Of a stretch of 16,795 nucleotides of DNA, positions 1-16,795 are shown in pieces. Origin of the DNA: Pedosphaera sp. Lineage in GTDB: Bacteria > Verrucomicrobiota > Verrucomicrobiia > Limisphaerales > SIBH01. The stretch is from contig JANOQV010000117.1 in the NCBI GenBank assembly GCA_031414955.1, positions 1 to 16,795 on the forward strand, given 5' to 3'. The notes under the pieces were generated by a model. It did no database searches, had not been told where the DNA came from, and was given only the letters and a program-made list of their open reading frames with translations. Made by a program: the position numbers and the translations under genes. Each line of letters starts with the position of its first letter. Within the stretch, counting starts at the first letter, position 1.

Positions 1-108
1 CGCCAAGCTCTTGTCTTGGGCCCGGGCGCGCAGCGCAATCACTGCGGCCGCGGCCAACGCCGCCGCGAGCATGCCGCCGGCCAGACCCGTGAGCGCGCGC
101 CGCGACAC
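1..108 (-). CDS. Possible 5' end of a divergent gene for an exported or membrane protein (runs off the window edge)
   Basis: Minus-strand frame from GTG at 108-106 reads (M)SRRALTGLAGGMLAAALAAAAVIALRARAQDKSLA to position 1 without a stop: basic N-terminus plus a hydrophobic stretch. GGAGG lies upstream. Only 36 codons are visible. Confidence 0.35.
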   Translation of the reverse strand, partial: MSRRALTGLAGGMLAAALAAAAVIALRARAQDKSLA

Positions 109-282
109 ATCGGCGCCCCACTCCGCCTCCGGATTTTCAGAACGGGGCTGAGGTTTTCCGGCTGGCGCTTTCTGCGGCCCTCCCGCCGCTGCGGTGCCAC
201 CGGGTGTCAGGTGCCGCTACACCGCAGCAGAGTTCCCGCAGATTCAAAACGGCCCCGGCCAGGTTGCCGGCGCTCCCAGGGA

Positions 283-330
283 TTTACGCGCGCTTAACAA
301 TTCTCCACGCGCGGCACACGGTTGCTTAAC
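283..330 (+). promoter_or_regulatory. Phased direct-repeat box, copy 1 (TTTAC-N6-TTAAC-AATTC-N11-CACAC-N6-TTAAC), putative transcription-factor site
   Basis: 35/48 gapless identity (manual count) to 2119-2166. Conserved pentamers at offsets 0, 11, 32 and 43 fall in helical phase. Confidence 0.7.
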
Positions 331-375
331 CCTGTGGGCTGAGGATCGGCGCGTGAAGCTGAACGTCATTGGTTT

Positions 376-510
376 GAAAACCCCAAGTCCCAAGACTCCA
401 ACCCCAGGGAAGCTCCAAGCGCCAAGCATCCATAGCGCCGGTGAACGTGTGGCCTGGGAACTTGAGATTTGGAACTTCCCTGGTGCTTGGGGTTTGGGAT
501 TTGGGATTTC
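376..510. repeat. Imperfect inverted-repeat element built from ~7-nt CCAA-containing units
   Basis: Left arm 376-432 (gaaaaccccaagtcccaagactccaaccccagggaagctccaagcgccaagcatcca) is complementary to right arm 455-510 (reverse complement gaaatcccaaatcccaaaccccaagcaccagggaagttccaaatctcaagttccca). Shared core is CCAGGGAAGyTCCAA. Confidence 0.85.
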
Positions 511-561
511 CAGACAGCATGGAATCACCTTCCCTCCCAACTCGGCCTCCGCCCGGCCTCG

Positions 562-570
562 TGCTAGAGT
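562..570 (+). promoter_or_regulatory. Putative extended -10 element (TGcTAGAGT) of a leaderless promoter
   Basis: TGn-TAnnnT ends 7 nt before the ATG at 578; no Shine-Dalgarno sequence in between. Confidence 0.45.
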
Positions 571-577
571 GCCCGCG

Positions 578-2113: not shown

Positions 2114-2118
2114 GTCCT

Positions 2119-2166
2119 TTTACCTGCGCTTAACAATTCCCTCTCTTCGGCACACATTCACTTAAC
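2119..2166 (+). promoter_or_regulatory. Phased direct-repeat box, copy 2
   Basis: tttac ctgcgc ttaac aattc cctct cttcgg cacac attcac ttaac; same architecture and spacing as 283-330. Confidence 0.7.
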
Positions 2167-2218
2167 AGCGCGAGCCGTTGATCCACGCATGAGTTTGAAC
2201 GCAATAACCAACTTTTTT

Positions 2219-3958
2219 ATGAAGACAGCAATGCCCTCGCTGGTCCGCGCGGCCCTCGTGCTCGCCCTCGTTTCCGCCACCACGCTCCGTGCCGCGGACC
2301 CGCACACGGATTCGTGGTTCACGACTTACTCCGCCAAGTACGCGCGGATCTACACCACCGACGCCAACCAGACCGCCGGCAACTCCGTGAGCAACTGGAG
2401 CAACGGCACGCAGACGCAGGCGCTGCCGGCCTATTGTGGCGTGCAGGAAATTTATTCGTCGGCGGGCTGGGTCTATGTGCGCTCGACGGGGCTGGGCAGC
2501 CACGTCATGGGACCGTGGTTGAACGGCGCTTTTCCGAACCTGCCCAAGAACCAGAAAGTTTTCTACCGCATCCCGCGCACGCCCGTCGTGCCCGGGACGA
2601 AGACGCTGACCGGACTCGGTGCCATCGGCTATTTCGTGGATGGCGTGGCGATGTTTGATTCGCGCGACGGCTTCGTGTGGACGGGCAGCGCAGAGAGCGG
2701 CATGGGCACGGGCTACTGGAACCGAGAGGCGTATGTGAATGAAGGCGCGACTTTTGATCCCGGCTACGCGCATCAGGAGCAAAGCGGCACGCACCATTAC
2801 CACGCCAACCCGATCGCGTTGCGTTACCTGCTCGGCGACCATGTTGATTACGTCCCCGCGACGAAAACTTACGCCGAATCCACCAACGTCGTGACGAAGC
2901 ATTCGCCCATCCTCGGCTGGGTGCGCGACGGTTTTCCGATCTACGGGCCCTATGGCTACTCGGTTTCCAACAACGCCGCGAGCGGAGTGCGCCGGATGCT
3001 CTCGGGCTTTCAGCTTCGCAACGGCTCGCGCGGCACGGATAATTTGACGAACACGCTCCGCGCCAGCTTGCCAGCGTGGGCGGTGCGTCTTTACGGCACG
3101 AACACCTCCGGCCCGGACAATCTCGCCACCTATCCCGTCAGCCGCTACATGGAGGACAACGCGTTTCTCGGCGACCTCGGTTATGCGATGGGCACCGACT
3201 ACGACCTCGACGAATACAACGGGCGCTTCTGCGTGACGCCGGAATTTCCCGGCGGCACGTATGCCTACTTCGTCAGCATCAGCACTAATGGCACGCCGGT
3301 TTACCCTTACAACATCGGGCGCACCTTCTACGGCACGCCGAGCGGCGCGGCGGTCACGACGCTGGCGGAGACGGTGGCAACCAATTTCGTCGGTGGCGCG
3401 AGCGCGCCGCAGACTTTGGCCAAACCCACGGTGAGCGGTGGCAACGTGACACTGGTGTGGAGCGGCACCGAGGGCGGCACGTATCGCGTGGAAGGCACGA
3501 CGAACTTCACCACCTGGACGACGAACGCCACGAACCTCACCGCGCCCAACGGCACGGGCCGTTACACCAACAGCAGCACGGCGGGCCTCGGCTTCTACAA
3601 GATCGCGCGCACCGCGCTGGCGACTTACGACCTGGTCACCGGCGGCGGCGGTGGCAACGGCATTCTCGGCGTGTCGCCCAGCAACGCGTCGGTGGGCAGC
3701 ACTTTCACGCTCACGGTCAATCTGGATCCGGCGGTGAACCCTCCGCCGATGAATGCGCCGGTCAACAGCGTGACCATCGGCGCGATCGCCGGCACCAGCC
3801 GCATCCACGCCAGCGCCACGCAGGTGACGGCGAGCTTCACCATCCCGGTTGGCACCACGCCAGGCACCAACACCGTGACGGTGGTTTTCCCCGGCCCGCC
3901 GGGCAATCCGACCGCGACCGTGACCTACACGCTGCCGAATGGATTCATCATCAACTGA
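2219..3958 (+). CDS. Secreted YHYH-domain protein with C-terminal beta-rich/Ig-like domains; ~579 aa (alternative starts 2189, 2231)
   Basis: Signal peptide ...LVRAALVLALVSATTLRA. YHYH-family motifs IGYFVDGVAMF, AHQEQSGTHHYHANP, HSPILGWVRDGFPIYGPYG, DLDEYNGRFCVTPEFPGGTYAYF. Confidence 0.88.
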   Translation: MKTAMPSLVRAALVLALVSATTLRAADPHTDSWFTTYSAKYARIYTTDANQTAGNSVSNWSNGTQTQALPAYCGVQEIYSSAGWVYVRSTGLGSHVMGPWLNGAFPNLPKNQKVFYRIPRTPVVPGTKTLTGLGAIGYFVDGVAMFDSRDGFVWTGSAESGMGTGYWNREAYVNEGATFDPGYAHQEQSGTHHYHANPIALRYLLGDHVDYVPATKTYAESTNVVTKHSPILGWVRDGFPIYGPYGYSVSNNAASGVRRMLSGFQLRNGSRGTDNLTNTLRASLPAWAVRLYGTNTSGPDNLATYPVSRYMEDNAFLGDLGYAMGTDYDLDEYNGRFCVTPEFPGGTYAYFVSISTNGTPVYPYNIGRTFYGTPSGAAVTTLAETVATNFVGGASAPQTLAKPTVSGGNVTLVWSGTEGGTYRVEGTTNFTTWTTNATNLTAPNGTGRYTNSSTAGLGFYKIARTALATYDLVTGGGGGNGILGVSPSNASVGSTFTLTVNLDPAVNPPPMNAPVNSVTIGAIAGTSRIHASATQVTASFTIPVGTTPGTNTVTVVFPGPPGNPTATVTYTLPNGFIIN

Positions 3959-3977
3959 AACGATTTATTCTTCGCTG

Positions 3978-5879
3978 ATGATGCACGCCGAACTCCAAAG
4001 CGCGGATGGGTGGCACAGGCAGGCAGTTCGTGCTACCTCGGCGGCTGCGCTGGAGCGCCGAGCATCGCTCGGCCTGACGCCCGGTCGCACCTCCGAGCCG
4101 AGCAATGCTCGGCGCTCTGCTTTTGCCCTCGCCCTGCTGCTACTCACCCACTCCTGCTTGGCCGCCACGTTGGAAATTTCCCTCCGCCACACCTTCAACG
4201 GTGAACCGCTGCAACTCGACTCGGTGCGTTACCAGAATGCCGCCGGGGAAACCTTGTCGGTCACGCGAGCGGGCTGCCTTCTGACTGGCTTCGCCCTGGA
4301 GCGCAGCGACGGCTCATGGCTGGAATTCACCAATGCCCTCGCCTGGATGGACGCCGAGAAGGGGCGCACCTCCCTTCGCATCCCCGAAGTCCCTCCCGCC
4401 GTCTATCGCAGCCTGCGCTTCCACTTCGGCCCCGACGCCGCCGCAAACCACGCCGATCCCGCGAAGCTCGCCGCCGACCATCCACTCAACCCGAACCTCA
4501 ACGGCCTGCACTGGAACTGGCAGGGCGGCTACATTTTTCTGGCGCTCGAAGGACGGTGGCGGTCTGCCGCAGACCGGCCGCGAGATGCCGCCGCAAAACT
4601 AGATGGCTTCTCTTTCCACTTCGCGAACGATACGAACCGGACGCGCATCCATCTCGCCACTGCGATCGACCTTACGCGCGACGCCCGTCTCGAACTCGAC
4701 TTTGATCTCGCGCCTTTGTTTAACGCGCCGCGCCCGATCTCGTTCGTGAAGGACGGTTCCTCCACCCACTCGCGACCCGGCGATCCCATCGCGGCGTCGC
4801 TGCAGGCCAACCTTCCCGGTGCCTTTCGCGTGCGACGCGTCTCCAAGGTGGATGCGACAGACATAACGCCAGCAGTCGTGCGACCGCTTTATCTGCCCGC
4901 GAAATTCGCGCCCTACCGTTTCACCATGAGCGCGGTGTTTCCCATTCCTGATTTGCCGCGCGACAATCCGCTCATCGAAGAACGCGTGGTCTTGGGCGAA
5001 AAGTTGTTCCGCGAAACGGCCTTGTCGCGTGACGGCACGATCTCCTGTGTTTCGTGTCACGATTCCAAGGCCGCCTTCTCCGATCCGCGACGTTACAGCC
5101 TCGGTGTGCACAACCAGGCCGGCACGCGTCACGCCATGCCGCTGTTCAACCTCGCGTGGAAGAGCTCGTTCTTCTGGGATGGTCGCGCCCCGTCATTGCG
5201 GGTGCAGGCCCTGATGCCCATTCAGGATCACGTCGAGATGGATGAGTCGCTGAGCAATGTCGTGGTCAAGCTGGCGGCAAAGGATGGTTACGCGACCGGC
5301 TTCACCGCCGCCTTTGGTTCCCCGGTGATCACTCCGGAAAAAATCGGCCTGGCCATCGAGTCTTTCGTCCTCACTCTCACTTCCTTCGACTCCAAGTTCG
5401 ACCGCGCCTTTCGCGGTGAGGCGCGACTGACCGACGAGGAGAAGCGCGGCTTCGAGCTGTTCATGACCGAATACGATCCACGCCGTGAACAGTACGGTGC
5501 CGACTGTTTCCACTGCCACGGCGGGACGCTGTTCCAGAGCCAGACCTTCGCGAATAACGGACTCGACGCGAAATTCTCGGACTTGGGCCGCGCGAAAATT
5601 ACAGGCAAGGACTCCGACGCGGGGAAATTCTCCACGCCCTCGCTGCGGAACATCGCCCTGACTGCGCCCTACATGCACGACGGCCGTTTCGCCACGCTGG
5701 ACGAAGTTGTTGAGCACTACAGCTCGGGAGTGAAGCGCAGCGCCACGCTCGACCCGAACCTCGCCAAGCATCCCGAGGGCGGCTTGGGGCTGAGCGCCGA
5801 GGACAAGCGCGCTTTGGTGGCGTTTCTCAGGACGCTGACGGATGAGAAGTTTCAACCGGGCACGGTGGCTCCGCATTAA
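3978..5879 (+). CDS. Fusion of an MbnP-like copper-binding domain (N-terminal) and a di-heme cytochrome c peroxidase of MauG/MbnH type (C-terminal); ~633 aa
   Basis: Signal h-region AFALALLLLTHSCLA. MbnP-type motifs NHADP and LHWNWQGGYIF (WxW at 4512-4520). Peroxidase motifs LGEKLF..LSRDGTISCVSCH (5046-5060), FWDGRA, CFHCH (5505-5519), KFSTPSLRNIALTAPYMHDG. Starts 19 nt after the YHYH stop codon. Confidence 0.88.
   Translation: MMHAELQSADGWHRQAVRATSAAALERRASLGLTPGRTSEPSNARRSAFALALLLLTHSCLAATLEISLRHTFNGEPLQLDSVRYQNAAGETLSVTRAGCLLTGFALERSDGSWLEFTNALAWMDAEKGRTSLRIPEVPPAVYRSLRFHFGPDAAANHADPAKLAADHPLNPNLNGLHWNWQGGYIFLALEGRWRSAADRPRDAAAKLDGFSFHFANDTNRTRIHLATAIDLTRDARLELDFDLAPLFNAPRPISFVKDGSSTHSRPGDPIAASLQANLPGAFRVRRVSKVDATDITPAVVRPLYLPAKFAPYRFTMSAVFPIPDLPRDNPLIEERVVLGEKLFRETALSRDGTISCVSCHDSKAAFSDPRRYSLGVHNQAGTRHAMPLFNLAWKSSFFWDGRAPSLRVQALMPIQDHVEMDESLSNVVVKLAAKDGYATGFTAAFGSPVITPEKIGLAIESFVLTLTSFDSKFDRAFRGEARLTDEEKRGFELFMTEYDPRREQYGADCFHCHGGTLFQSQTFANNGLDAKFSDLGRAKITGKDSDAGKFSTPSLRNIALTAPYMHDGRFATLDEVVEHYSSGVKRSATLDPNLAKHPEGGLGLSAEDKRALVAFLRTLTDEKFQPGTVAPH
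4052..4118. repeat. GGAG-type REP-like doublet inside the 5' end of the MbnP/peroxidase ORF
   Basis: gagcgccgagcatcgctcggc (4053-4073) and gccgagcaatgctcggcgctc (4097-4117) are 20/21 inverted repeats; each arm is itself palindromic (gccgagc-N3-gctcggc). Confidence 0.85.
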
Positions 5880-5942
5880 ACGTGGTCTGCTCCTCCTGAA
5901 TCGGAGCGAGGGCAAAGTGGAAAATCTCGCTTTGTGATTCGG

Positions 5943-6052
5943 GCGGGTAGGGCGTCGCTGTCCTCAGCGCGCCGGGGTGAGGTGCCAACGAGTTCGAGTG
6001 GCCTTGGTCAGGCGGTGGCCCGGCGCGCTGGGGACAGCGACGCCCTACCCGC
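5943..6052. repeat. GTAG-type REP-like doublet (intergenic)
   Basis: 34-bp arms 5943-5976 and 6019-6052 are 33/34 complementary (the mismatch would be G-U in RNA). Arm begins gcggGTAGGGCG. Confidence 0.9.
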
Positions 6053-6151
6053 TCCGGCAATTCTCTCAAGCAAAACGCGCATTTATTCATGGCGCGCAGC
6101 ATCCGGGTTCTTCAAAGTCCGGCCGGATTTTCCCGAACTCACAGGATTGAT

Positions 6152-9067
6152 ATGAAGCGATTGATGACCCTTGGCTGCTTGCTTGTCACTACGGCCCTGG
6201 CCTCCGCGGCCACCGGTCCCATCCGCGTGCTGCACCTGGGCGACGGTACGACCGCCACCACCCGCCATGCCCACGTCTTGATGCGTGATCTGGGCCGCGA
6301 CGCCATCTGGTTCGAGTACGCGAGCGACGCGGCGCGGGTGACACCGGAGTGGATCGCGAAGTTTGACGCCGTGCTGTTGGACGCGCCGAAGGACAGCTTC
6401 AAGTCGCTGGCCGGGGTGGAGGCGACGAAGATCATCTCGCCCGACTTCAGCCTGGACAGCGAGGCGCTGGTGCCGGTGGTGCGTGCGGCCGTGCTGAAGG
6501 CGGCAGGTGGCGCGCGGCAGAATGATTGGGAGGCGTTCCTCGCGCAGCGTGAGCCGGAGAAGCGCGCGGCCAACCCGAACGTCGCCAACTACGAGCGCCG
6601 CCCCGAGGCTCTCACGGTGCCGGAGCCGTTCTCGGTGAAGGGGAGCAAGGAGCGCACGCAGGTCGCGCCGGATTTGCGCCTGGAACTGTTCGCCGCCGAG
6701 CCGGACATCGCCAAGCCCATCGCCTTCGCCTGGGACGAGCGCGGACGCTGCTGGGTGGCGGAGACGCGCGATTACCCGCACAGCGTGCAGCGCAGCGGCG
6801 AGGGCAACGACAGCATCAAGATTTGCGAGGACACGGACGGCGACGGCAAGGCGGACAAGTTCACCATCTTCGCGGACAAGCTGAACATTCCGACCAGCCT
6901 GGTGTTCGTGAACGGCGGCATCATCATCTCGCAGCCGCCGAGTTTTATTTTTCTCAAAGACACGAACGGCGACGACAAGGCCGACGAGCGCCGTGAAGTC
7001 CTGACCGGCTGGGGCATCAATGATACCCACGCCCAGGCGAACAATCTGCACTACGGCCACGACAACTGGCTCTATGGCTGCGTGGGCTACTCGGGTTTCA
7101 ACGGCGAGGTCGGAGGCAAGCAACTGCGTTTTGCGCAGGGCACGTATCGCTTCAAGGCCGACGGCTCGGCGCTGGAATTCCTGCACCAGTTCTCGAACAA
7201 CTCGTGGGGTCAGAGCGCGAACGACGCGGGCGACCAGTTCGGCGGCACGGCCAACGGCGCGCCGATTTTTTACGGCGGCATTCCCGCCAGTGCCGCGCCG
7301 CCCGGCCTGCGCGTCGCGACCGCGCGCAAGATTAACGTCGAGGACACCTGCCATACCATCACGCCAAACTTCCGTCAGGTGGATGTGATGGGCGGCTACA
7401 CGGCGGCGGCGGGCAGCGCATTCATTTACTCGGGCAATTTGCCGCCGCGCCTGCAAGGCATGGCCATGGTCTGCGAGCCGACGATGAAGAACATTGCGCT
7501 TATGGATGTGCGGCCCAAGGGCGCGGGCTACACGGCTCGGGACGGTTTCAATCTCGTGGCCAGCAGCGACGAGTGGATGTCGCCTGTGTTCAGCGAAGTC
7601 GGCCCGGATGGCGCGGTGTGGTTCGCCGACTGGCAGAATTTCATCATCCAGCACAATCCGACGCCCAGCGTGCAACGCGGCGGCTACAACGCCAAGACCG
7701 GTGTGGGCGGCGCGCACGAAAATCCGCTGCGCGACCATGTGCGCGGCCGCATCTATCGCGTGGTGTGGGAGATGGCGCAGAAGCCGGCCATCACTTCGCT
7801 CCGGGGCGCGTCCAGTGACGCGCTGGTCGGCGCGCTGTCGAGTGACAATTCGTTCTGGCGCCTGACCGCGCAGCGCCTGCTCGTCGAGGGCAGGAAGACG
7901 GACGCCACCGAGTCATTGAAAAAAATTGTCACCGCGACCAACGCTGGGGTGGGCGCGGTCCATGCCCTGTGGACGTTGCACGCACTCGGCCAGCTTGATG
8001 ACAAGACGCATCTCGCCGGTTTGCTGGCCAAGGATTCCCGCGTCCGCCGCGCCGCGACCCGCGCACTCGGCCATGACGACAAGGCGAAGACACTGTTTTT
8101 CAGCGCCGGTGTCGTGACTGATACCGATCTGGTCACGCGCCAGACGGCCTTCTTGAAGCTCGGCGATTTCCCGACTTCCAAGGAGATTCAAACCGTCGTG
8201 GCCAGCCTCGCGAAGAATCCCACACACCGTTCCGACGAATGGTTGAGCGACACGACCCGCCTGCTGGGCAAGAAGCACAAGACCGACGCCTACATCGAAG
8301 GCCCGAACATCCTGCCCAATCCCGGCTTTGAAACCACGGGCGCGAGCGGCCTGCCCGAAGGGTGGAAGCGGCGCGATTACGCCGGGCTGCCGGGCAACGC
8401 CGGCGCGGAGTGGGCCAGCGTGAACGGCGCGGGCAACGTCCACGGCGGCGAGCGCGCCCTGCGCTGCATCACGCGCGACAACGCCGACACCAGCTTCTAC
8501 GCCGACGTGGAGCTAAAGCCCAACACCACCTACCGGCTCTCCGGCTGGGTGAAAGGCCACGCCCTGCGCGGCAAGATCAGTCTCAACGATCACCTGGGCC
8601 GCGCCGAGACCGAGCGCGCGCCGCGCGGGGACAGCGACTGGACGCTCGTGGAAGTGGATTACAACAGCGGCAACGTGACTAGGACGAGCATCAACATCCT
8701 CCACGTCGCCGTGGGCGACGGCTATTTCGACGACGTGAAGTTGTGTGAATTGCTGCCCATCGATGCGCCGGTGGGGGCCGTGGTTGGAGTGGCTCAACGC
8801 GGTGCTGATATTTTCCACAATCATCTGGCGCGCTGCGTTCTTTGCCACGCGCTCAAAGGCGAGGGCAGCACGGTGGGGCCGGCGCTGGACGGCATCGCCA
8901 GCCGCGCCACGCCGGAATACCTGAAGGAGAGCCTGCTCGAGCCGAGCAAGGTCATCGCCAAGGGATTCGAGAGTCTCGGCGCGGTGTCGCCGATGTTTCC
9001 GATGGGCGACATCTTCAGCCCGCAGGAAATCGAGGACATCCTCGCCTACCTCAAGACGCTGAAGTAA
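6152..9067 (+). CDS. PVC-type heme-binding CxxCH protein (putative membrane-associated dehydrogenase family): beta-propeller, HEAT-like repeats, CBM-like domain, C-terminal cytochrome c; 971 aa
   Basis: Signal peptide MKRLMTLGCLLVTTALASA. ELFAAEPDIAKPIAFAWDERGRCWV, EDTDGDGKADK, VGPDGAVWFADW and RGRIYRV typical of the family. NILPNPGFE...FDDVKL CBM4/9-like segment (8306-8743). CVLCH (8834-8848), VGPALDGIA, ESLLEPS, SPM. Confidence 0.9.
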   Translation: MKRLMTLGCLLVTTALASAATGPIRVLHLGDGTTATTRHAHVLMRDLGRDAIWFEYASDAARVTPEWIAKFDAVLLDAPKDSFKSLAGVEATKIISPDFSLDSEALVPVVRAAVLKAAGGARQNDWEAFLAQREPEKRAANPNVANYERRPEALTVPEPFSVKGSKERTQVAPDLRLELFAAEPDIAKPIAFAWDERGRCWVAETRDYPHSVQRSGEGNDSIKICEDTDGDGKADKFTIFADKLNIPTSLVFVNGGIIISQPPSFIFLKDTNGDDKADERREVLTGWGINDTHAQANNLHYGHDNWLYGCVGYSGFNGEVGGKQLRFAQGTYRFKADGSALEFLHQFSNNSWGQSANDAGDQFGGTANGAPIFYGGIPASAAPPGLRVATARKINVEDTCHTITPNFRQVDVMGGYTAAAGSAFIYSGNLPPRLQGMAMVCEPTMKNIALMDVRPKGAGYTARDGFNLVASSDEWMSPVFSEVGPDGAVWFADWQNFIIQHNPTPSVQRGGYNAKTGVGGAHENPLRDHVRGRIYRVVWEMAQKPAITSLRGASSDALVGALSSDNSFWRLTAQRLLVEGRKTDATESLKKIVTATNAGVGAVHALWTLHALGQLDDKTHLAGLLAKDSRVRRAATRALGHDDKAKTLFFSAGVVTDTDLVTRQTAFLKLGDFPTSKEIQTVVASLAKNPTHRSDEWLSDTTRLLGKKHKTDAYIEGPNILPNPGFETTGASGLPEGWKRRDYAGLPGNAGAEWASVNGAGNVHGGERALRCITRDNADTSFYADVELKPNTTYRLSGWVKGHALRGKISLNDHLGRAETERAPRGDSDWTLVEVDYNSGNVTRTSINILHVAVGDGYFDDVKLCELLPIDAPVGAVVGVAQRGADIFHNHLARCVLCHALKGEGSTVGPALDGIASRATPEYLKESLLEPSKVIAKGFESLGAVSPMFPMGDIFSPQEIEDILAYLKTLK

Positions 9068-9177
9068 CGGAGCGCGGGTTTTCAACCCGCAGCAACTTGT
9101 GAACGGCCGCACGCGCCAATGATTTCGCAGCTGTTCCGATAAGTGCGGCTTGCTGCGGGTTGAAAACCCGCGCTCCG
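9068..9177. repeat. GGAG-type REP-like doublet immediately after the stop codon
   Basis: Perfect 28-bp inverted repeat cggagcgcgggttttcaacccgcagcaa (9068-9095) / 9150-9177; each arm has an internal palindrome gcggg-N7-cccgc. Confidence 0.92.
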
Positions 9178-9179
9178 CA

Positions 9180-9198
9180 AAGTTCCTGTTGGCAGGCG
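9180..9198 (+). promoter_or_regulatory. 19-bp motif AAGTTCCTGTTGGCAGGCG, copy 1 (putative operator or promoter part)
   Basis: Identical to 15225-15243; contains the dyad CCTG-N4-CAGG; both copies are intergenic and upstream of a gene. Confidence 0.5.
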
Positions 9199-9258
9199 CG
9201 ACCAAGAAGGTGATTGACGTCCAGCCCCGTGGATCGCTGCATAGGCGCGATTCACTGC

Positions 9259-12200
9259 ATGAAATTAAGCTTGGTATTAACCGGCCTGCTCGCGCTGGCT
9301 TTTGGCTTTGCCGCCGAGGCCGTCGCGGCGGACAAACTTTCGTTCAACCGCGACATCCGCCCGATCTTTTCCGACACCTGCTTCCAGTGCCACGGGCCGG
9401 ATGAAGCCAAGCGGAAAGGCGGGTTGCGGCTCGACCAGCGGGCCAGCGCCATCCAGCCCGCCAAGTCCGGGGCCATCGCCATCGTGCCCGGCAAACCGGA
9501 TCAAAGCGAAGTGCTCACGCGACTCACTTCCAAGGATGAGGACGAGGTCATGCCGCCCGCGAAGCTGCACAAGACCATCACGCCCGCGCAGATCGCCACG
9601 GTCCGCCAGTGGATCAAGGAAGGCGCGCCGTATCAAGGGCACTGGGCGTTCATCAAACCGGAGCGGCCGGAAGTTCCGGTGATCAGTAAATCAGTAATCA
9701 GTAATCAGCCGGCCAGGAATAGCCGCCGGCCACTGAACACTGATTCACTGATTACTGATTACTCTCCCAACCCCATCGACGCCTTCATCCGCGCGCGGCT
9801 GGCGAAGGAAAAACTTTCGCCCTCGCCCGAGGCACCGAAGGAAACTCTCATTCGCCGCGTGTCGCTGGATCTCACCGGCCTGCCGCCCGCGCCGGAGGAC
9901 GTGGAGGCGTTCCTCGCGGATCGTTCGCCCCATGCCTACGAGAAAGTTGTGGATCAGTTGCTCGCTTCACCGCGCTACGGAGAGCATGCGGCCGCAAGCT
10001 GGCTCGACCTGGCGCGCTATGCCGACAGCAATGGTTTCCAATCCGACACGCGTCGCGAGATGTGGCACTGGCGCGACTGGGTCATCAAGTCCTTCAACGA
10101 CAATCAGCCGTTTGATCAGTTCACCATCGAACAGCTCGCGGGCGACCTGCTGCCGCAGGCCACGCGCGCTCAGCTCGTGGCCACGGGCTTCAATCGCAAT
10201 CACCGCCTCAACGGCGAGGGCGGGCGCATCGTCGAGGAATGGTTTGCCGAGACGGTGATTGATCGCGTGGAGACGACCGGGCTGACGTGGATGGCGCTGA
10301 CTTTCAATTGCTCCCGCTGCCACGATCACAAATACGATCCGATTTCGCAGAAGGAGTTCTATCAGCTCTTCGCCTTCTTCAACTCGAACGATGAGCAGGG
10401 CGTGATGGATGAATTCGGCGGTGCGGGTGCGACCCGCCAGGGCGGCAATTCCAAGCCGGCGCTCTCGTTGCCCGATCCCGAGCAGGAAGCGAAGCTCGCC
10501 ACTCTCGGAGCGGCGGTGAAGTCCGCCGAAGTCGGCTTGGCGGAGGCGAACAAGGCGTTGCCGGAATTACAGGCGCAGTGGGAAGAGAGTTTTCGTCGTG
10601 AACTTGAAGTGGCGAAACCTGCGTGGGCTCCGCTCGCCGCGCCGCAGGTGAAAAGCGTCGGTGGTGCCACGCTGACGAAACAGCCGGACGACTCCTGGCT
10701 GGCCAGCGACAAGAATCCTGCCAGTGACACGTACGAAGTGAGCGCGAAGATTGCCGCAGGACAATTCACCGGCGTGCTGCTGGAAGTCTTCCCCGACGAC
10801 TCGCTGCCGAACAAGAGCCTTGGTCGCGGGCACAACGGCAACTTCATCCTCACCGGCGTCGAGGCGGAGATCAGTGCGCCAGGCTTGAACGAACCTTTGA
10901 TCGCCCATTTCACCCGAGCCGTCGCGGACTACGAGCAGAAGGAGTGGGAAGTGAAGAATGTCCTGCCCGCCGACGCGACGCCCGCGCCGAAAAAGAAAGG
11001 CGCGAAGGCCAAGGCTCCGGCCAAAGGCAAAGGCTGGGCCGTGGATGGAAACGCCGAGGACAAACGCCTGCCGCGCAAGGCTCTGTTCGCGTGCGAGCCG
11101 CTCACGGTTCCAACAAATGCGACCGTGACCGTGCGCTTGCTGCACGGCTCGGGCAGCGGCGATCACAATATCGGGCGTTTCCGGTTGAGCAGCAGTTCGC
11201 TCGCGCCCGCCGCACTGGCTCTCGGCGGCCTGGCCTTGCCTGACTTGGTCCGCTCGGCGCTCAACACCAATGCCGCCGCCCGCACGGCCGCGCAGAAAAA
11301 AGAGCTGGCGAAGTTCTTCCGCGAGAACGCCGATCATCCAGCGAAAAAAGCGGAGGCGAATGTCGCTTTGGCGAAGAAAGCGGTGGCGGCTCTCCAAGCG
11401 AACATCGGCAACACGATGATTTTCAAGGAACTGCAAAAGCCGCGCGATGCTTTCCTGCTGGTGCGCGGCGAGTACGACAAGAAAGGCGACAAAGTGGAGC
11501 GCGGCGTGCCGGCCTCGTTGCCGCCGCTGCCGGCGGGCGCTCCAACCAACCGACTCGGCATGGCCCAGTGGCTCATGAGTCCCAAGCATCCGCTCACCGC
11601 CCGGGTCTGGGTGAACCGCACTTGGGAAAAATTCTTCGGCGCCGGCCTGGTGAAGAGCACGGAAAATCTCGGTTCCCAATCAGAGTGGCCCAGCCATCCC
11701 GAACTGCTCGACTGGCTGGCGGTCGAGTTCATGCAGCCGACGGTGTTGCCGGCGGTCAACGGTCGTCCGGCGCAGCGTTGGGACATGAAGGCCATGCAGA
11801 AGCTCATCGTGATGAGCGCGAGCTATCGCCAGTCCGCGCGCGTCACGCCGCAGTTGGTGGCCAAGGATCCTGAGAACCGGCTGCTGGCGCGCGGGCCACG
11901 CTTCCGGCTCAGCGCGGAGATGGTGCGCGATCAGTCGCTCGCGGTGAGCGGATTGCTGGTGGAAAAACTCGGCGGCCCCAGCGTGAATCCTTACATGCCG
12001 GAGCGGGTCTGGGATGAGACGAGCGTTTACGGCGACATGCGCAATTACAAACCGGACAGCGGTGGGAGCTTGTATCGCCGCACCCTCTACACGATCTGGA
12101 AGCGCACGGCCGCGCCGCCCACCATGCTCATGTTCGATTCCCCCAGCCGCGAGATCTGCACGGTGAAGCGCTCGCGCTCGAACACACCGCTCCAGGCGCT

Positions 12201-12531
12201 CGCGCTGCTCAACGAAGTCACCTACGTGGAAGCGGCCCGCCGGCTGGCCGAGCGGATGTTGAGCGAAGGCGGCACCACGCCGGAGGCGCGCATCGACTGG
12301 GCGTTTCGCCGTGCCACCGGGCGGGCGCCGGAGAAAGCCGAGGTCGCGGTGCTGGCCAAGGGACTTCAGTCGCGCCTGCAAAAATTTCAGGCGGACGCCG
12401 ATGCAGCGAAGAAATTGATCACGCAGGGCGCATCGAAGCCGGATGCGAAATTGGAAGCTCCCGAGTTGGCCGCCTACTCGACGACGGCCAACGTGATTCT
12501 CAACCTTGACGAGGTCGTGACGCGGGAATAG
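9259..12531 (+). CDS. Planctomycete cytochrome c + DUF1549 + DUF1553 (PSD1) domain protein; 1090 aa
   Basis: Signal peptide MKLSLVLTGLLALAFGFAAEAVA. FNRDIRPIFSDTCFQCHG, HWAF, NPIDAFI, LIRRVSLDLTGLPP, WLDLARYADSNG, CSRCHDHKYDPISQKEFY, HPLTARVWVNR, PSHPELLDWLA, RLSAEMVRD, NTPLQALALLN. Confidence 0.95.
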   Translation: MKLSLVLTGLLALAFGFAAEAVAADKLSFNRDIRPIFSDTCFQCHGPDEAKRKGGLRLDQRASAIQPAKSGAIAIVPGKPDQSEVLTRLTSKDEDEVMPPAKLHKTITPAQIATVRQWIKEGAPYQGHWAFIKPERPEVPVISKSVISNQPARNSRRPLNTDSLITDYSPNPIDAFIRARLAKEKLSPSPEAPKETLIRRVSLDLTGLPPAPEDVEAFLADRSPHAYEKVVDQLLASPRYGEHAAASWLDLARYADSNGFQSDTRREMWHWRDWVIKSFNDNQPFDQFTIEQLAGDLLPQATRAQLVATGFNRNHRLNGEGGRIVEEWFAETVIDRVETTGLTWMALTFNCSRCHDHKYDPISQKEFYQLFAFFNSNDEQGVMDEFGGAGATRQGGNSKPALSLPDPEQEAKLATLGAAVKSAEVGLAEANKALPELQAQWEESFRRELEVAKPAWAPLAAPQVKSVGGATLTKQPDDSWLASDKNPASDTYEVSAKIAAGQFTGVLLEVFPDDSLPNKSLGRGHNGNFILTGVEAEISAPGLNEPLIAHFTRAVADYEQKEWEVKNVLPADATPAPKKKGAKAKAPAKGKGWAVDGNAEDKRLPRKALFACEPLTVPTNATVTVRLLHGSGSGDHNIGRFRLSSSSLAPAALALGGLALPDLVRSALNTNAAARTAAQKKELAKFFRENADHPAKKAEANVALAKKAVAALQANIGNTMIFKELQKPRDAFLLVRGEYDKKGDKVERGVPASLPPLPAGAPTNRLGMAQWLMSPKHPLTARVWVNRTWEKFFGAGLVKSTENLGSQSEWPSHPELLDWLAVEFMQPTVLPAVNGRPAQRWDMKAMQKLIVMSASYRQSARVTPQLVAKDPENRLLARGPRFRLSAEMVRDQSLAVSGLLVEKLGGPSVNPYMPERVWDETSVYGDMRNYKPDSGGSLYRRTLYTIWKRTAAPPTMLMFDSPSREICTVKRSRSNTPLQALALLNEVTYVEAARRLAERMLSEGGTTPEARIDWAFRRATGRAPEKAEVAVLAKGLQSRLQKFQADADAAKKLITQGASKPDAKLEAPELAAYSTTANVILNLDEVVTRE
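9679..9762. repeat. In-frame 84-bp palindromic element of GTAATCA heptamers inside the DUF1553 gene
   Basis: Left arm gtgatca-gtaaatca-gtaatca-gtaatcag (9679-9708); right arm ctgaacactgattcactgattactgattac (9733-9762). AT-rich in a GC-rich gene; encodes VISKSVISNQPARNSRRPLNTDSLITDY. Confidence 0.88.
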
Positions 12532-12544
12532 CGCAGGGAGTTTT

Positions 12545-12721
12545 ATGGCAGAAAGATTTTATGGCAGGAAAATGGGAGGGGAGGCGGGCGGCTGCAAAAA
12601 CGCATGGGGCGGAGCGCCGCTAATCCTGCCGCGCTTCGAGTTTCGCCACCGCTCCGAGAGACATGAGTATTCCCCTTCCCGTCTCAGTCCCCATTTTCCT
12701 GCCATCAAATCTTTCTGCCAT
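12545..12721. repeat. Long hairpin element upstream of the GxxExxY gene (arms A and B)
   Basis: 32-bp arms 12545-12576 and 12690-12721 are 31/32 complementary. Arm A overlaps a tandem dimer of a 16-mer TTTTATGGCAGRAARA (12541-12572). The spacer has a nested stem cggagcg (12610-12616) / cgctccg (12650-12656). Confidence 0.92.
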
Positions 12722-12741
12722 TTTCCCTCAGCATTTTAAGC

Positions 12742-13527
12742 ATGCCCATCGTCCCGAGCATTCCCTTGCGGCGCATCTCCCAAAAGGAGTTCGGCGCGAT
12801 GTCGTTCGAAGTGATGCGGCATGTCTTCGAGATGCACAACGACCTGGGCCGTTTCTTTGACGAGAAGATTTACAAGCGCGAGCTGGCCCGCCGTGTGCCT
12901 GGCATCCGGCTTGAAACGCCCATCGACTTCATCCACGAGTCCTTCTCCAAGCGATACTTCCTCGATGTCTTGCTGGACACCGCCGGGCTGTTCGAGTTCA
13001 AGGCGGCGGAACGCATCGTGCCCCGCCATCGTGCCCAGTCGCTGCACTACTTGTTCGCCGGCAACCTCACCCACGCGAAGTTGATTAACATGCGCCCCGA
13101 GTCGGTGGAGCATGAGTTCATCAACACGAGCCTGACCGAGGAGGAGCGAAAGCGATTTGCCGTCACCACGACGCGCTGGGATCGGACGCTGCCTGGAGCC
13201 GCGCGGGTGGAAGAGGTCATGCTGGCCCTGCTCCAAGATTGGGGGGCCGGACTGGAAGTGCCGCTCTACGAGGAAGCGTTGACCCATTTTCTCGGCGGCA
13301 ATTCCATGGTGGATCAGGAAGTGGAAGTTCGTCTCGGAACGGTCGCGCTGGGCCACCAACGCTTCCGTCTGGCTGCGCCGGAAGTGGCGTTCAAGCTGAC
13401 GGCGTTGACCGAGCGCCAGGAAGAATTCGAGGATCACACCCGCCGGCTGCTGGCCCACACGCGAATGCAAGCCCTGCTCTGGGTGAACCTCACTGTCTCC
13501 GAGATCACCTTCACCACCTTGCAATGA
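12742..13527 (+). CDS. GxxExxY-family protein (PD-(D/E)XK nuclease fold) with two tandem GxxExxY-like domains; 261 aa
   Basis: Domain 1: HNDLGRFFDEKIYKREL ... YFLDVLL ... LFEFKA ... HRAQSLHYL ... LINM. Domain 2: WGAGLEVPLYEEAL ... EVEVR ... LLWVNL. Confidence 0.85.
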   Translation: MPIVPSIPLRRISQKEFGAMSFEVMRHVFEMHNDLGRFFDEKIYKRELARRVPGIRLETPIDFIHESFSKRYFLDVLLDTAGLFEFKAAERIVPRHRAQSLHYLFAGNLTHAKLINMRPESVEHEFINTSLTEEERKRFAVTTTRWDRTLPGAARVEEVMLALLQDWGAGLEVPLYEEALTHFLGGNSMVDQEVEVRLGTVALGHQRFRLAAPEVAFKLTALTERQEEFEDHTRRLLAHTRMQALLWVNLTVSEITFTTLQ

Positions 13528-13528
13528 A

Positions 13529-13557
13529 ATTTTCCTGCCATAAAATCTTTCTGCCAT
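13529..13557. repeat. Arm C: third copy of the GxxExxY-flanking repeat, filling the gap between the GxxExxY stop and the DUF1501 start
   Basis: attttcctgccataaaatctttctgccat; 29/29 inverted to arm A and 28/29 direct to arm B. Confidence 0.95.
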
Positions 13558-13561
13558 GCCC

Positions 13562-15028
13562 ATGAACTGCAACGACCATCAATTCCTCCGGCTCGGTGCG
13601 CAGCAGCGGCCCGGGCTGACGCGGCGAACTTTCCTGCAACGCACGGCCAGCGGCATCGGCCTGGCCGCGCTGGGCGGATTGTTGAACCCGCGCACGTTCG
13701 CCGCCGCGGGCGGTCAGACTGGCTTTCCGAACTTTGCCCCCAAGGCGAAACGCATCATTTACCTCTTCCAATCGGGCGCGCCGTCGCAGATGGACCTCTT
13801 CGATCCGAAGCCGGAGCTGGCCAGGAAGCGCGCGGAAGATTTGCCCGCCTCCATCCGGCAGGGGCAACGCCTCACCACGATGACCAGCGGGCAGAAGACT
13901 TTTCCGGTCGCGCCGAGCATTTTCAAATTCGCCCAGCACGGCCAAAGCGGCGCGTGGTTCAGCGAGTTGATGCCGCACATGAGCAAGCTCGCCGATGACT
14001 GGTGCATCATTCGCTCGATGCACACCGAGGCCATCAATCACGACCCGGCCATCACCTTCATGCAGACCGGTTCGCAGCTCGCGGGCCGTCCCAGCATCGG
14101 CGCGTGGGCTTCTTATGGTCTCGGCAGCGAGAACGCCGAGCTGCCCGCGTATGTCGTGCTCACGTCCTTCGGCAGCGGGCGCAAGGACGACCAGCCGCTT
14201 TATGATCGCCTGTGGAGCGCGGGCTTTCTTCCGTCCAAGCACCAGGGGGTAAAGTTTCGGAACTCGGGCGATCCGGTTCTGTATCTCTCCAATCCGCCCG
14301 GCATGAACCGCGAGATGCGCCGCGAGACGCTTGATGAAATATCGGTGTTGAACAAACGGCGCCTCGATGCCTTGGGTGATCCAGAAATCCAGACCCGCAT
14401 TGCCCAATACGAAATGGCCTTCCGCATGCAGGCCAGCGTGCCGGACCTGACCGACTTTTCGAAGGAGCCGGCCTCCGTGCTCGAAGCCTACGGTCCCGAC
14501 GTGAAGCGTCCCGGCAGCTACGCCGCAAATTGTCTGCTCGCCCGGCGGCTGGCCGAGCGCGACGTGCGCTTCGTGCAACTTTTTCACATGGGCTGGGATC
14601 ACCATTTTGGTTTGCCCGCCGCCCTGAAGGGCCAATGCAAGGACACCGATCAGCCGACCGCCGCGTTGATCAACGACCTCAAGCAACGCGGGCTGTTTGA
14701 TGACACGCTGATTGTTTGGGGCGGCGAGTTCGGCCGCACCATCTACTCACAAGGCGCGCTCACGGAGACGAACTACGGCCGCGATCATCATCCGCGCTGC
14801 TTCAGTCTGCTCATGACGGGTGCGGGCGTGAAGAAGGGCATCACCTACGGGGCCACGGATGATTACTGCTACAACATCACCGAGAATCCGATCCATGTGC
14901 ATGACCTCAACGCCACCATCATGCACCTGATGGGCGTAAACCACGAGAAGCTGACCTACCGCTATCAAGGCCGCGATTTTCGCCTCACCGACATTCACGG
15001 AGAGTTGGTCAAGGGCGTGCTCGCGTAG
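13562..15028 (+). CDS. DUF1501 domain-containing protein with Tat signal; 488 aa (alternative start 13556)
   Basis: TRRTFLQ twin-arginine signal; PKAKRIIYLFQSGAPSQMDLFDPKP, NHDPA, GRPSIGAW, CLLARRLAERDVRFVQL, GWDHH, WGGEFGRT, GRDHHP, HVHDLNAT. Confidence 0.95.
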   Translation: MNCNDHQFLRLGAQQRPGLTRRTFLQRTASGIGLAALGGLLNPRTFAAAGGQTGFPNFAPKAKRIIYLFQSGAPSQMDLFDPKPELARKRAEDLPASIRQGQRLTTMTSGQKTFPVAPSIFKFAQHGQSGAWFSELMPHMSKLADDWCIIRSMHTEAINHDPAITFMQTGSQLAGRPSIGAWASYGLGSENAELPAYVVLTSFGSGRKDDQPLYDRLWSAGFLPSKHQGVKFRNSGDPVLYLSNPPGMNREMRRETLDEISVLNKRRLDALGDPEIQTRIAQYEMAFRMQASVPDLTDFSKEPASVLEAYGPDVKRPGSYAANCLLARRLAERDVRFVQLFHMGWDHHFGLPAALKGQCKDTDQPTAALINDLKQRGLFDDTLIVWGGEFGRTIYSQGALTETNYGRDHHPRCFSLLMTGAGVKKGITYGATDDYCYNITENPIHVHDLNATIMHLMGVNHEKLTYRYQGRDFRLTDIHGELVKGVLA

Positions 15029-15051
15029 CGCGACGCCCACTGCGGACGTGT

Positions 15052-15196
15052 CTTGGAAGTGCCGCCAACACGAGACTGGAAAGTCTCTCAACCTGCCGGC
15101 TGGAAAGCCGGCGTTACGGCGTAGCGCCGACATTCGTGTCGGCAGGTGGCGAGACTTTCCAGTCTCGCAGTTCACCAGCCTGGCGGCACTTCCAAG
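15052..15196. repeat. Nested composite REP-like palindrome between the two DUF1501 genes
   Basis: Outer perfect 16-bp IR (15052-15067 / 15181-15196), inner perfect 17-bp IR (15071-15087 / 15151-15167), acctgccg/cggcaggt, and ...GTTAC ggc GTAG... at the centre. Sub-hairpins carry TGGAAA/TTTCCA loops. Confidence 0.9.
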
Positions 15197-15224
15197 CTGC
15201 GCCCGCCCCATGCCACGCGCGGCG

Positions 15225-15261
15225 AAGTTCCTGTTGGCAGGCGTGGGTGATTGGCTAGATT
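15225..15261 (+). promoter_or_regulatory. 19-bp motif copy 2 overlapping a putative leaderless sigma70-type promoter (TTGGCA-N16-TAGATT)
   Basis: AAGTTCCTGTTGGCAGGCG at 15225-15243; TTGGCA 15234-15239; TAGATT 15256-15261 ends 6 nt before ATG 15268; no Shine-Dalgarno sequence. Confidence 0.5.
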
Positions 15262-15267
15262 GCCGCC

Positions 15268-16728
15268 ATGTTCCTCGGCGGCAGCCACTGCTCGCGGCGT
15301 GATTTCCTGGCGCGAACCAGCGCGGGATTTGGCGCTCTCGCTTTTGGAGCGTTGTCTGCGCTCAACGCGCGCGGCGAGGGTACGAAGCTCCGCAAGATTG
15401 ATCCGCTGAATCCCTTCACTCCGCGCCAGCCCGATTTCAAGCCCACGGCCAAGTCAGTCATCTTCCTCTTCATGGTCGGCGGGCCGTCGCACGTCGATAC
15501 GTTCGACTACAAGCCGGAGTTGCAGAAGCTCAATGGCAAACCGGTGCCGGACTCGATCAAGAAGGCCGTGCTGTCGACGCGGCACGCCAATGTCTTCCAC
15601 GGCTGCAAGGAGGAACTGCTCGCAAGTCCCTACAAGTTCAAGCAACACGGCCAGACGGGACTGTGGGTCAGCGAACTGTATCCCAAGGTCGCCGGGCATG
15701 TGGATGAACTGTGCTTCATCCATTCGCTTCAGGCCGAGTCGAACAATCACGCACCGGCCAGTTATCAGCTTCACACCGGAGACATTCGTCCGGGCAAGGC
15801 CAGCCTTGGCTCGTGGGTCACGTACGGGCTGGGCACGGAGAACCAGGACTTGCCCGGCTATGTGATGTTGTTCGATGCCGGCCCGCTTGGAGGCGCTGCG
15901 AATTACTCAAACGGGTTTTTGCCCGCCGCCTTTCAGCCCACGCGCCTGCGCGACAAGGGGACGCCTGTGCTCGACCTCTTGCCGCCGGATGAATTCGCTC
16001 CCGGCCAGCGGGCCTCGCTCGATTTGATCAAGACGCTGAATCTCAAGCATCGCGAGTCGCGGGCCGGAGTGACTGAACTTGACGCGCGCATCGCCAGCTA
16101 CGAACTCGCCTATCGAATGCAAACCGCCGCGCTCGATGTGGGCAACATGGAAGGCGAGTCGCAGCCGCTGCGCGCCAGTTACGGTTTCGAGCACAAGGAC
16201 AAGCGCACGCAGAGCTTCGGGCGCAAATGTTTGCTCGCCCGCCGCCTCGTTGAACGCGGCGTGCGTTTCGTGCAGGTCTATGACATGCCGGACAAGGACG
16301 GCTGGGACGCGCACGGCAACCTCACGGGGAACCACACGCCGCGCGCGCGTTGGACGGACGAGCCGATTGCCGCACTGCTCACGGATTTGAAACAGCGCGG
16401 TCTGCTCGACACCACGCTGGTGATCTGGGCGAGCGAGTTCGGCCGCACGCCGATGATGCAGGGCGACAATGGCCGTCAGCACAACGCCGCCGGCTTCACT
16501 GTCTGGATGGCGGGCGGCGGCGTGAAGCCAGGCGTGCGCATCGGCGCGACCGACGACATCGGACTGATGGCCGTGAAGGACGCGCACCCGTTCAAGGATC
16601 TGCACGCGACCATTCTGCGCGCCATGGGCCTCGACAACGAAGAGTTGGGCTTCGAAGTCAGCGGTCGCACCGAGCGGCTCACCGGCGTGGCGGGCACCTC
16701 AAAGATTATTCCAGGCGTCTTGGCGTGA
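15268..16728 (+). CDS. DUF1501 domain-containing protein (second paralog) with Tat signal; 486 aa
   Basis: SRRDFL twin-arginine signal; AKSVIFLFMVGGPSHVDTFDYKP, NNHAPA, SLGSWVTYGLG, CLLARRLVERGVRFVQV, GWDAH, WASEFGRTP, GRQHN. Confidence 0.95.
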   Translation: MFLGGSHCSRRDFLARTSAGFGALAFGALSALNARGEGTKLRKIDPLNPFTPRQPDFKPTAKSVIFLFMVGGPSHVDTFDYKPELQKLNGKPVPDSIKKAVLSTRHANVFHGCKEELLASPYKFKQHGQTGLWVSELYPKVAGHVDELCFIHSLQAESNNHAPASYQLHTGDIRPGKASLGSWVTYGLGTENQDLPGYVMLFDAGPLGGAANYSNGFLPAAFQPTRLRDKGTPVLDLLPPDEFAPGQRASLDLIKTLNLKHRESRAGVTELDARIASYELAYRMQTAALDVGNMEGESQPLRASYGFEHKDKRTQSFGRKCLLARRLVERGVRFVQVYDMPDKDGWDAHGNLTGNHTPRARWTDEPIAALLTDLKQRGLLDTTLVIWASEFGRTPMMQGDNGRQHNAAGFTVWMAGGGVKPGVRIGATDDIGLMAVKDAHPFKDLHATILRAMGLDNEELGFEVSGRTERLTGVAGTSKIIPGVLA

Positions 16729-16734
16729 GCGGGC

Positions 16735-16764
16735 AAAGCGGCGCTAAAGCGACCGCACTCCAAA
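16735..16764. repeat. Single arm of a probable GGAG-type REP-like element (partner may lie beyond the window)
   Basis: Reverse complement tttGGAGtgcggtcgctttagcgccgcttt has a GGAG head and an imperfect internal palindrome (gcgg-t-cgct-tt-agcg-ccgc). It lies just after the stop codon, like other REP-like elements here. Confidence 0.5.
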
Positions 16765-16795
16765 CGCTGTCGCGCATCACACGTCGCCTCGAATT

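Follow-up and report, generated by a model that had tools for sequence, protein, structure and literature searches.

Between two host genes of the DUF1553 and DUF1501 type lies a unit of about 1 kb that carries a single nuclease-fold gene. The window analysed here is the whole stretch of 16,795 nucleotides (contig JANOQV010000117.1, positions 1 to 16,795, forward strand) from a Pedosphaera sp. assembly of 6.5 Mb and 62% GC (GCA_031414955.1), and the unit and its two neighbours consist of the following features, listed from left to right.

9214..12531, + strand: upstream host gene, encoding a DUF1553/DUF1549/PSCyt1 protein (Pfam PF07587/PF07583); its stop codon, 12529-12531, is the left junction of the insert
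12531..13560, no strand: whole insert, 1030 nt; the empty allele has 5 nt instead
12533..12731, no strand: A-B hairpin, a REPIN-like doublet 5' of the gene, with a 44-nt stem at 86%
12545..12573, + strand: arm A, with words at 12547-12557 and 12563-12573, class AA
12545..12739, + strand: putatively translated relay ORF of 64 codons spanning the A-B hairpin; it stops 2 nt before the nuclease start
12693..12721, - strand: arm B, a third copy, whose 1 mismatch falls in the linker between the words
12742..13527, + strand: tandem GxxExxY gene, 261 aa
12769..13137, + strand: domain 1 of the tandem GxxExxY protein, about aa 10-132, PD-(D/E)XK fold
13123..13125, + strand: codon of Asn128, the residue co-varying with base 8 of the arm word
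13183..13524, + strand: domain 2 of the tandem GxxExxY protein, about aa 148-261, a degenerate copy of the GxxExxY fold
13524..13565, + strand: putatively translated relay ORF of 13 codons spanning arm C, with an ATGA overlap at each end
13529..13557, - strand: arm C, the perfect reverse complement of arm A
13562..15028, + strand: downstream host gene, encoding a DUF1501 protein; start placed by orthologues

Arms A and C are 29 nt long, 100% complementary and separated by 955 nt. The initial annotation had described a perfect 29-bp inverted repeat at 12545-12573 and 13529-13557, starting 13 nt past the DUF1553 stop codon and enclosing a GxxExxY gene, and all of this proved correct. It had also taken the two arms for the ends of the unit, and while the A/C pair is real, the third arm, B, had been missed. 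Similarly, the length and pairing of the 29-bp repeat stand, but an arm is not a simple 29-mer, as it is built of two 11-nt words of the form NNCARxxxxAT at 16-nt spacing. The A-B hairpin was not equalled in quality by any of 200 shuffled sequences (z = -6.7). The right end had been placed at the DUF1501 start; three orthologues put this start not at 13556 but at the ATG at 13562, 4 nt past arm C, and the 13-codon relay ORF overlaps by ATGA both the nuclease stop and this start. In HMM searches only PF13366 and TIGR04256 matched within the insert, and no transposase domain was found. Rfam searches gave no family near threshold, only sub-threshold matches to long hairpins, and PADLOC assigned no family to the locus. 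A sigma-70-like promoter considered at 13519-13546 was rejected, as its match is at chance level. The GC3 of the nuclease gene is 0.81 against values of 0.79 and 0.80, and composition is thus no mark of foreign origin. It needs to be mentioned that the window contains five further long intergenic hairpins (372-515, 4053-4117, 5943-6052, 9068-9177 and 15071-15167), and that a heptad-repeat hairpin lies in frame within the DUF1553 gene at 9683-9759, where the G013 orthologue is without 26 residues.

The 1-kb unit is a real, polymorphic insertion between the DUF1553 and DUF1501 genes. A search of 13 relatives retrieved three orthologous DUF1501 genes (84-88% identity), and at all three junctions the DUF1553 gene precedes by 5-10 nt with no insert. 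In addition, a contig found in runs X3 and X5 of one study, 95% identical on the left flank and 91% on the right, carries an empty allele, in which position 12530 is joined to 13561 via 5 other letters. The early claim of an insertion splitting a DUF1553-DUF1501 pair thus holds, and a strictly vertical, fixed presence in all relatives is ruled out by the empty orthologous junctions and the empty allele. The empty allele also sets the bounds of the insert at 12531-13560, which makes the inserted unit slightly wider than the 1013 bp (12545-13557) proposed at first. For a second strain, sampled in runs X1 and X2 and with a left flank about 89% alike, the contig pieces suggest a filled junction, with an A-B spacer that in run X2 seems shorter than in the source locus. 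No target-site duplication was seen against the empty allele, which comes from a relative 5-9% diverged, and no precise excision joint of the source strain was present in the contigs of X1 and X2, a kind of data that drops rare variants. Paralogous DUF1553-DUF1501 junctions in relatives (L061, L078, L058) hold other inserts: a RAYT-type hairpin, what appears by eye to be a toxin-antitoxin pair, and a 300-nt stretch. The DUF1553-DUF1501 junction looks like a tolerant landing site.

Searching the source genome for the arm 29-mer gave 34 copies at 6 mismatches or fewer, mostly intergenic. As many as 28 of them are arranged in 14 inverted doublets, gene-less or beside the gene, seven in each orientation. 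The notion of a transposon-like unit with unique terminal repeats therefore had to be given up, since the arm belongs to a dispersed, REPIN-like family. No flanking direct repeats or target-site duplications were found beside the 14 doublets. The strict word pair occurs 17 times in the genome, once in 13 relatives of the host family and not at all in a reversed control, and the tandem GxxExxY gene is present in a single copy. The genome also contains three single-domain GxxExxY genes (L001-L003, on contigs C19, C301 and C184), each with its own distinct arms of 9-10 nt words, short motifs of which have 11, 9 and 3 genome matches. Most of the four-helix-bundle, Y1/RAYT and DUF559 genes of this genome that we inspected by eye have arms of their own too. 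Three of the five extra hairpins of the window resemble, by eye, the arms next to a four-helix-bundle gene (C241) and two RAYT-type genes (C94, C241), and short motifs from these three hairpins have 57, 38 and 27 genome matches as compared with 15, 1 and 2 in reversed controls. As four-helix-bundle genes with no known catalytic site show the same arm-gene-arm layout, this layout does not require a mobiliser as its cargo, and we consider this the strongest caution against the interpretation developed below.

The 261-aa ORF scores 52.4 bits against TIGR04256 (cut-off 35) and 55.5 bits against PF13366 (cut-off 22). It has 654 homologues at E <= 1e-20, mostly of 261-262 aa among the matches listed, and GxxExxY proteins occur in 86 of 121 genomes of the source's order. 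Residues E41, D75, E85, K87, Q99 and Y103, the last two forming a QxxxY motif, are kept in 65-66 of 66 aligned homologues. The GxxExxY motif itself is altered in domain 1, where Phe38 stands at the glycine position while E41 and Y44 are kept. The C-terminal half matches a single-domain GxxExxY profile (HHalign probability 89.9, E 2e-7), and it is without the D...ExK and QxxxY residues. The two halves do not match each other in a direct BLASTP comparison, and their profile-profile match is weak (probability 1.7); the duplication was shown via the single-domain profile. By sequence the protein is a tandem GxxExxY protein, composed of an intact PD-(D/E)XK domain and a degenerate copy. The fold noticed in the initial annotation is right, with the corrections that there are two such domains and that the motif glycine is replaced in the first. 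By codon comparison both domains are under purifying selection, as dN is well below dS in each for six of seven pairs, the seventh pair being nearly identical.

The AlphaFold model of the protein (pLDDT 96) finds its best structural matches in Cas4, RecB/AdnAB, MGME1 and restriction enzymes, all of them weak (Foldseek E 4e-3 at best). The top match, Cas4 SSO0001, has Z 7.0 and rmsd 2.4 over 90 aligned residues. Such matches support a PD-(D/E)XK fold and no particular function. A homodimer prediction scored 0.65, as compared with 0.00 for the best of three controls; of 30 known pairs 20 attain the mark used, as does 1 of 23 single chains. The dimer runs agree in at least 97% of contacts, with pLDDT of at least 93, and place residues 34-50 on 196-239 of the partner. 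The predicted assembly is a head-to-tail homodimer with two active sites, in which domain 1 of each chain packs against its partner's domain 2.

The arms turn out to go together with the type of protein. From 121 homologue records we kept 111 with 200 nt of flank, 65 of them tandem and 46 single-domain. The left and right flanks of a locus invert-match each other (score >= 14) in 59/65 tandem and 39/46 single-domain loci, whereas only 5 of 1000 ordinary control ORFs have matching inverted flanks. The expectation that GxxExxY homologues carry co-varying flanking inverted repeats was thus confirmed. Flanks of different loci match in 6.6% of tandem and 5.1% of single-domain pairs, and in merely 0.07% of tandem-single pairs. 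The words recur every 14-17 nt in tandem loci (58 of 59) and every 8-10 nt in single-domain loci (36 of 39); those of tandem loci have the common frame NNCARxxxxAT, and an outer forward arm with an outer reverse arm is the constant part of the layout. Word class follows the protein clades, with 9 changes as opposed to 31 when shuffled. Arms are still found at frameshifted or stop-broken tandem genes (L230/L272 in G529 C2, L269/L273 in G768 C214, L053, L108 and L111).

One position of the protein stands out in its relation to the word. In a screen of roughly 250 alignment columns over the 61 loci for which a word had been called, residue 128 best predicted word class (adjusted mutual information 0.83, the next column reaching 0.51). 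A rule for residue 128 was written down, and 32 new loci, most of them related to the discovery set, were then fetched. In 29 of these the words could be read, and while 8 have residues not covered by the rule, 20 of the 21 with a covered residue were predicted correctly (Asn 8/8 AA, Ser 9/9 AT, Ala 2/2 GG, Phe 1/1 CG, Thr 0/1). A later frameshifted copy also fits (Ala, GG), which brings the held-out total to 21/22. The misses of the rule are locus L013, a Ser with A, and the Thr prediction, L248. Base 8 of the word is A in all 30 Asn128 proteins and in 1 of 66 others. On a quick tree of these 96 rows, from which columns 122-132 were left out, there are 3 changes of Asn128 and 4 of A at base 8. 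All three residue changes carry the base change, and L232/L237 represent a nested reversal of both. Three independent changes (one on starred branches) are too few for a sign test, and 11 of the word classes were assigned by eye; the co-variation between residue 128 and base 8 is thus suggestive and not significant at three events. Asparagine commonly reads adenine, and it is plausible that Asn128 contacts or specifies base 8.

Since repeat spacing tracks the number of domains and one base tracks one residue, it is likely that the protein reads its own repeats, and probable that it spreads them. It is from this co-variation that we infer an action of the protein on its repeat.

The gene and the repeat are also associated across genomes. 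A tandem gene was found in 43 of 401 genomes (E <= 1e-60; six candidates scored per genome), and the AA or GG word pair occurs at least five times in 25 of these 43 genomes as opposed to 26 of the 358 without the gene, an odds ratio of 17.7 obtained from word pairs counted by hand and with kin treated as independent. The repeat is hence enriched together with the GxxExxY gene, and it is not a generic high-copy sequence lacking such an enrichment. The largest word-pair families have 337 (G614), 237 (G529) and 174 (G633) exact copies. In about half of the repeat-rich genomes no tandem gene was found. A complete tandem gene was absent from all 15 repeat-rich gene-less genomes that were rechecked in full, one of which has a contig-end fragment; an assembly of only 10 contigs with 52 word-pair copies is among the gene-less ones, and in G529 no GG-class gene accompanies the 237 GG-class copies. 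Gene loss or incomplete assemblies would explain these genomes, and so would another mobiliser. Among 30 loci around the repeats of the gene-less genome G773, no other ORF was found with a forward word pair on one side and a reverse one on the other. A metagenome scan with a single protein returned two loci, and no match to the protein was obtained on plasmids, phages or viral contigs. Eight stretches from a viral collection (L259-L266) contain the AA word pair, two of them as doublets; these may be the flanks of prophages, or a route by which the repeats spread.

How often does such a cassette move? There are no recent within-genome copies of the gene, the top identity among 33 pairs being 59%, and 46 of 66 close pairs (at least 62% identity) share their site. 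A GG-class clade (L009, L011, L149-L151, L154, L156, L161, L162 and L164) precedes the same zinc-ribbon-like gene in eight families, with a different upstream gene in 4 of the 10 loci. On the other hand, a 94%-identical pair adjoins different upstream genes, and an 84%-identical pair, one member from Planctomycetota and one from Verrucomicrobiota, occupies different sites. The lack of recent duplicates and the many shared sites, next to some unrelated ones, argue for rare movement and long residence, as for RAYTs.

As to the placement relative to neighbouring genes, the first word lies 30 nt or less from the upstream stop codon in 45 of 54 loci according to crude gene calls. Relay ORFs are weakly enriched on the left side (11/49 as compared with about 7 expected, p 0.06-0.07; with two hops 16/49 against 9.6, p 0.015). 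On the right side they are enriched (14/33 against 4.9 expected) relative to a shuffle that destroys the ATG and TGA contained in the words, and a relay ORF may thus be partly a by-product of these triplets. The source locus was scored negative on the right side because its start was taken as 13556. At L007/L008, L009, L011, L038 and L045 the ORF itself reads into the downstream arm and stops at a TGA inside a word.

Taken together, these data lead us to propose, with about an even chance of being right, that a two-domain nuclease-fold protein recognises the words of its own arms and nicks or cuts there, and that host repair then spreads arm doublets and, rarely, the cassette. The insert would be one cassette of a dispersed hairpin-repeat family. 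Its dimer may read a pair of 11-nt words, as the co-variation suggests, and the conserved catalytic residues make nicking or cutting of the arms probable. The substrate is presumably DNA, probably single-stranded or in the form of an extruded hairpin, the nearest folds being of the Cas4/RecB type. Repair by the host would distribute arm doublets that have no gene over the genome and only rarely move the whole cassette, a mobilisation suggested by the gene-repeat association and by analogy with RAYTs. The nuclease gene may have no promoter of its own and may be expressed by read-through. Short relay ORFs may keep the split operon coupled, and such coupling would explain how inserts of this kind survive at stop-start junctions.

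An unlikely alternative is that the protein reads the words on RNA or serves a host purpose, as a domesticated regulator or processing factor, the repeats being spread by other means. It would fit all the co-variation results equally well. Crude gene calls put the cassette in line with the genes on either side at 44 of 61 tandem loci, as compared with 259 of 574 ordinary genes, and this placement, like the occupation of one site across eight families, the purifying selection and the lack of duplicates, speaks in its favour. There is also a precedent in IVS elements, in which an ORF lies in a stem that RNase III processes as RNA, according to the part of PMC4990558 that deals with them. However, the nearest solved folds, weak as all these matches are, are mostly DNA nucleases. 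Also against it are the patchy presence of the gene (43/401 genomes), word classes that are not the same in sister genomes, and a gene count that tracks how many DNA copies of the repeats there are.

It is doubtful that the gene is a mere passenger, its arms being moved by another enzyme, for example one of the 12 PF01797 (Y1/RAYT-type) matches of the genome, all of which lie away from the insert, or by host hairpin processing, with arms and protein co-varying through co-inheritance alone. The same layout around four-helix-bundle, RAYT and DUF559 genes of the source genome is in its favour, as are repeat families with no cognate gene, and co-inheritance alone predicts that word class should track protein clades. 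Yet each gene family has its own arm grammar, tandem-single cross matches are nearly absent, and the word period tracks the number of domains. Moreover, the words stay constant across proteins that are about 40-50% identical and then switch with one residue, nested reversal included, and the catalytic residues are invariant.

A homing-type element, whose nuclease would cut an empty or doublet-only allele and whose cassette would be copied by repair from a filled one into the same site of other lineages, is improbable. Close strains do coexist in an apparently filled (about 89% left-flank identity) and an empty (95%) state. In the clade that precedes one and the same gene in eight families, gene identity and downstream-gene identity are hardly correlated (Spearman 0.09); both trees are poorly resolved, so that incongruence is not established. 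The empty junction, however, contains no word, and homing alone leaves the gene-less doublets at many unrelated sites unexplained. Finally, a classical IS or MITE with 29-bp TIRs moved by a DDE-type transposase, to which the perfect 29-nt outer arms and their constant forward/reverse layout might point, is largely refuted and highly improbable, because a target duplication and recent or multiple gene copies are lacking, as are a transposase domain and a plasmid or phage match, and the doublets occur in both orientations (7 and 7).

The proposal of a self-recognising nuclease can be widened to the family as a whole, and here we put the chances somewhat below even: GxxExxY proteins may be the engines of previously undescribed mobile elements that recognise themselves by a modular word code and use no transposase, integrase or HUH enzyme. 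In such a code one domain would read with a period of 8-10 nt and two domains with 14-17 nt, residue 128 would set base 8, and both the cassette and gene-less hairpins would be spread. If true, this would provide a function and a predicted substrate for a widespread family listed as being of unknown function (PMC3424549, in its treatment of the family), and would mean that an enzyme with no relationship to RAYT is able to run repeat families of the REP/REPIN kind. Each gene has its own predicted target alongside, with one residue (Asn128) and a substrate named, and a residue-to-base rule that can be read from a small nuclease would be of interest for protein-DNA recognition and for tool development. 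No published description of a single-domain or tandem GxxExxY cassette was found in a search of mostly open-access main texts.

Several known systems share parts of this picture. A mycobacterial MIRU, like the right end of our insert, is an insert at a start codon and carries a short ORF that a 4-nt overlap couples to the gene behind it; the MIRU passage of PMC12548453 names no nuclease gene for these repeats. In the S23p IVS of Coxiella 23S rRNA, likewise, a long stem with arms of short tandem words carries an ORF in its loop. As set out in the IVS section of PMC4990558, however, this IVS resides in rRNA, its product is a four-helix bundle, and RNase III excises it at the RNA level, whereas our insert separates two protein genes and its product has a nuclease fold. 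GxxExxY or PDDEXK_3 proteins (TIGR04256, PF13366) are described in the relevant entry of PMC3424549 as having no known function and multiple transfers. Domain 1 resembles them in exceeding both HMM cut-offs and in keeping the catalytic D...ExK, while the protein as a whole differs from the single-domain form of about 116-130 residues in being twice as long, with a degenerate second domain and a replaced motif glycine.

The REPIN-RAYT system, in the accounts consulted (Bertels and Rainey 2011, PMC3116915; Bertels et al., 10.1101/119735), is closer. There, too, inverted doublets dominate, and the gene is single-copy per repeat family, shows no near-identical duplicates and persists for long. The differences are the fold of the enzyme, the position of the gene, which here lies between two outer arms at operon junctions, homologues that clearly extend across phyla (84% identity) and excision, which was not observed here. 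The RAYT/REP analogy with a different nuclease fold, drawn at the outset, nevertheless fits well. Closest of all are TIRtrons and REPtrons, in which TIRs or REPs stand on both sides of a tyrosine transposase gene, as they are presented in the main account of Di Nocera et al. (2013, PMC3733652). According to this account they also consist of one gene between inverted repeats of a moderately abundant dispersed family, often arranged as dimers; several repeat-specific systems coexist per genome, the gene may vanish while the repeats stay, some repeat families have no dedicated transposase, and read-through expression is proposed there too. Their enzyme is an HUH Y1 transposase (PMC3733652), in contrast to the two-domain PD-(D/E)XK protein found here, and our arms are non-palindromic direct word pairs with no GTAG or CGTC tag, unlike the short palindromic REPs. 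The best reading, by analogy, is thus an insert that would work like a REPtron or TIRtron in which a PD-(D/E)XK enzyme replaces the HUH transposase, and it is on this enzyme that it falls outside the group.
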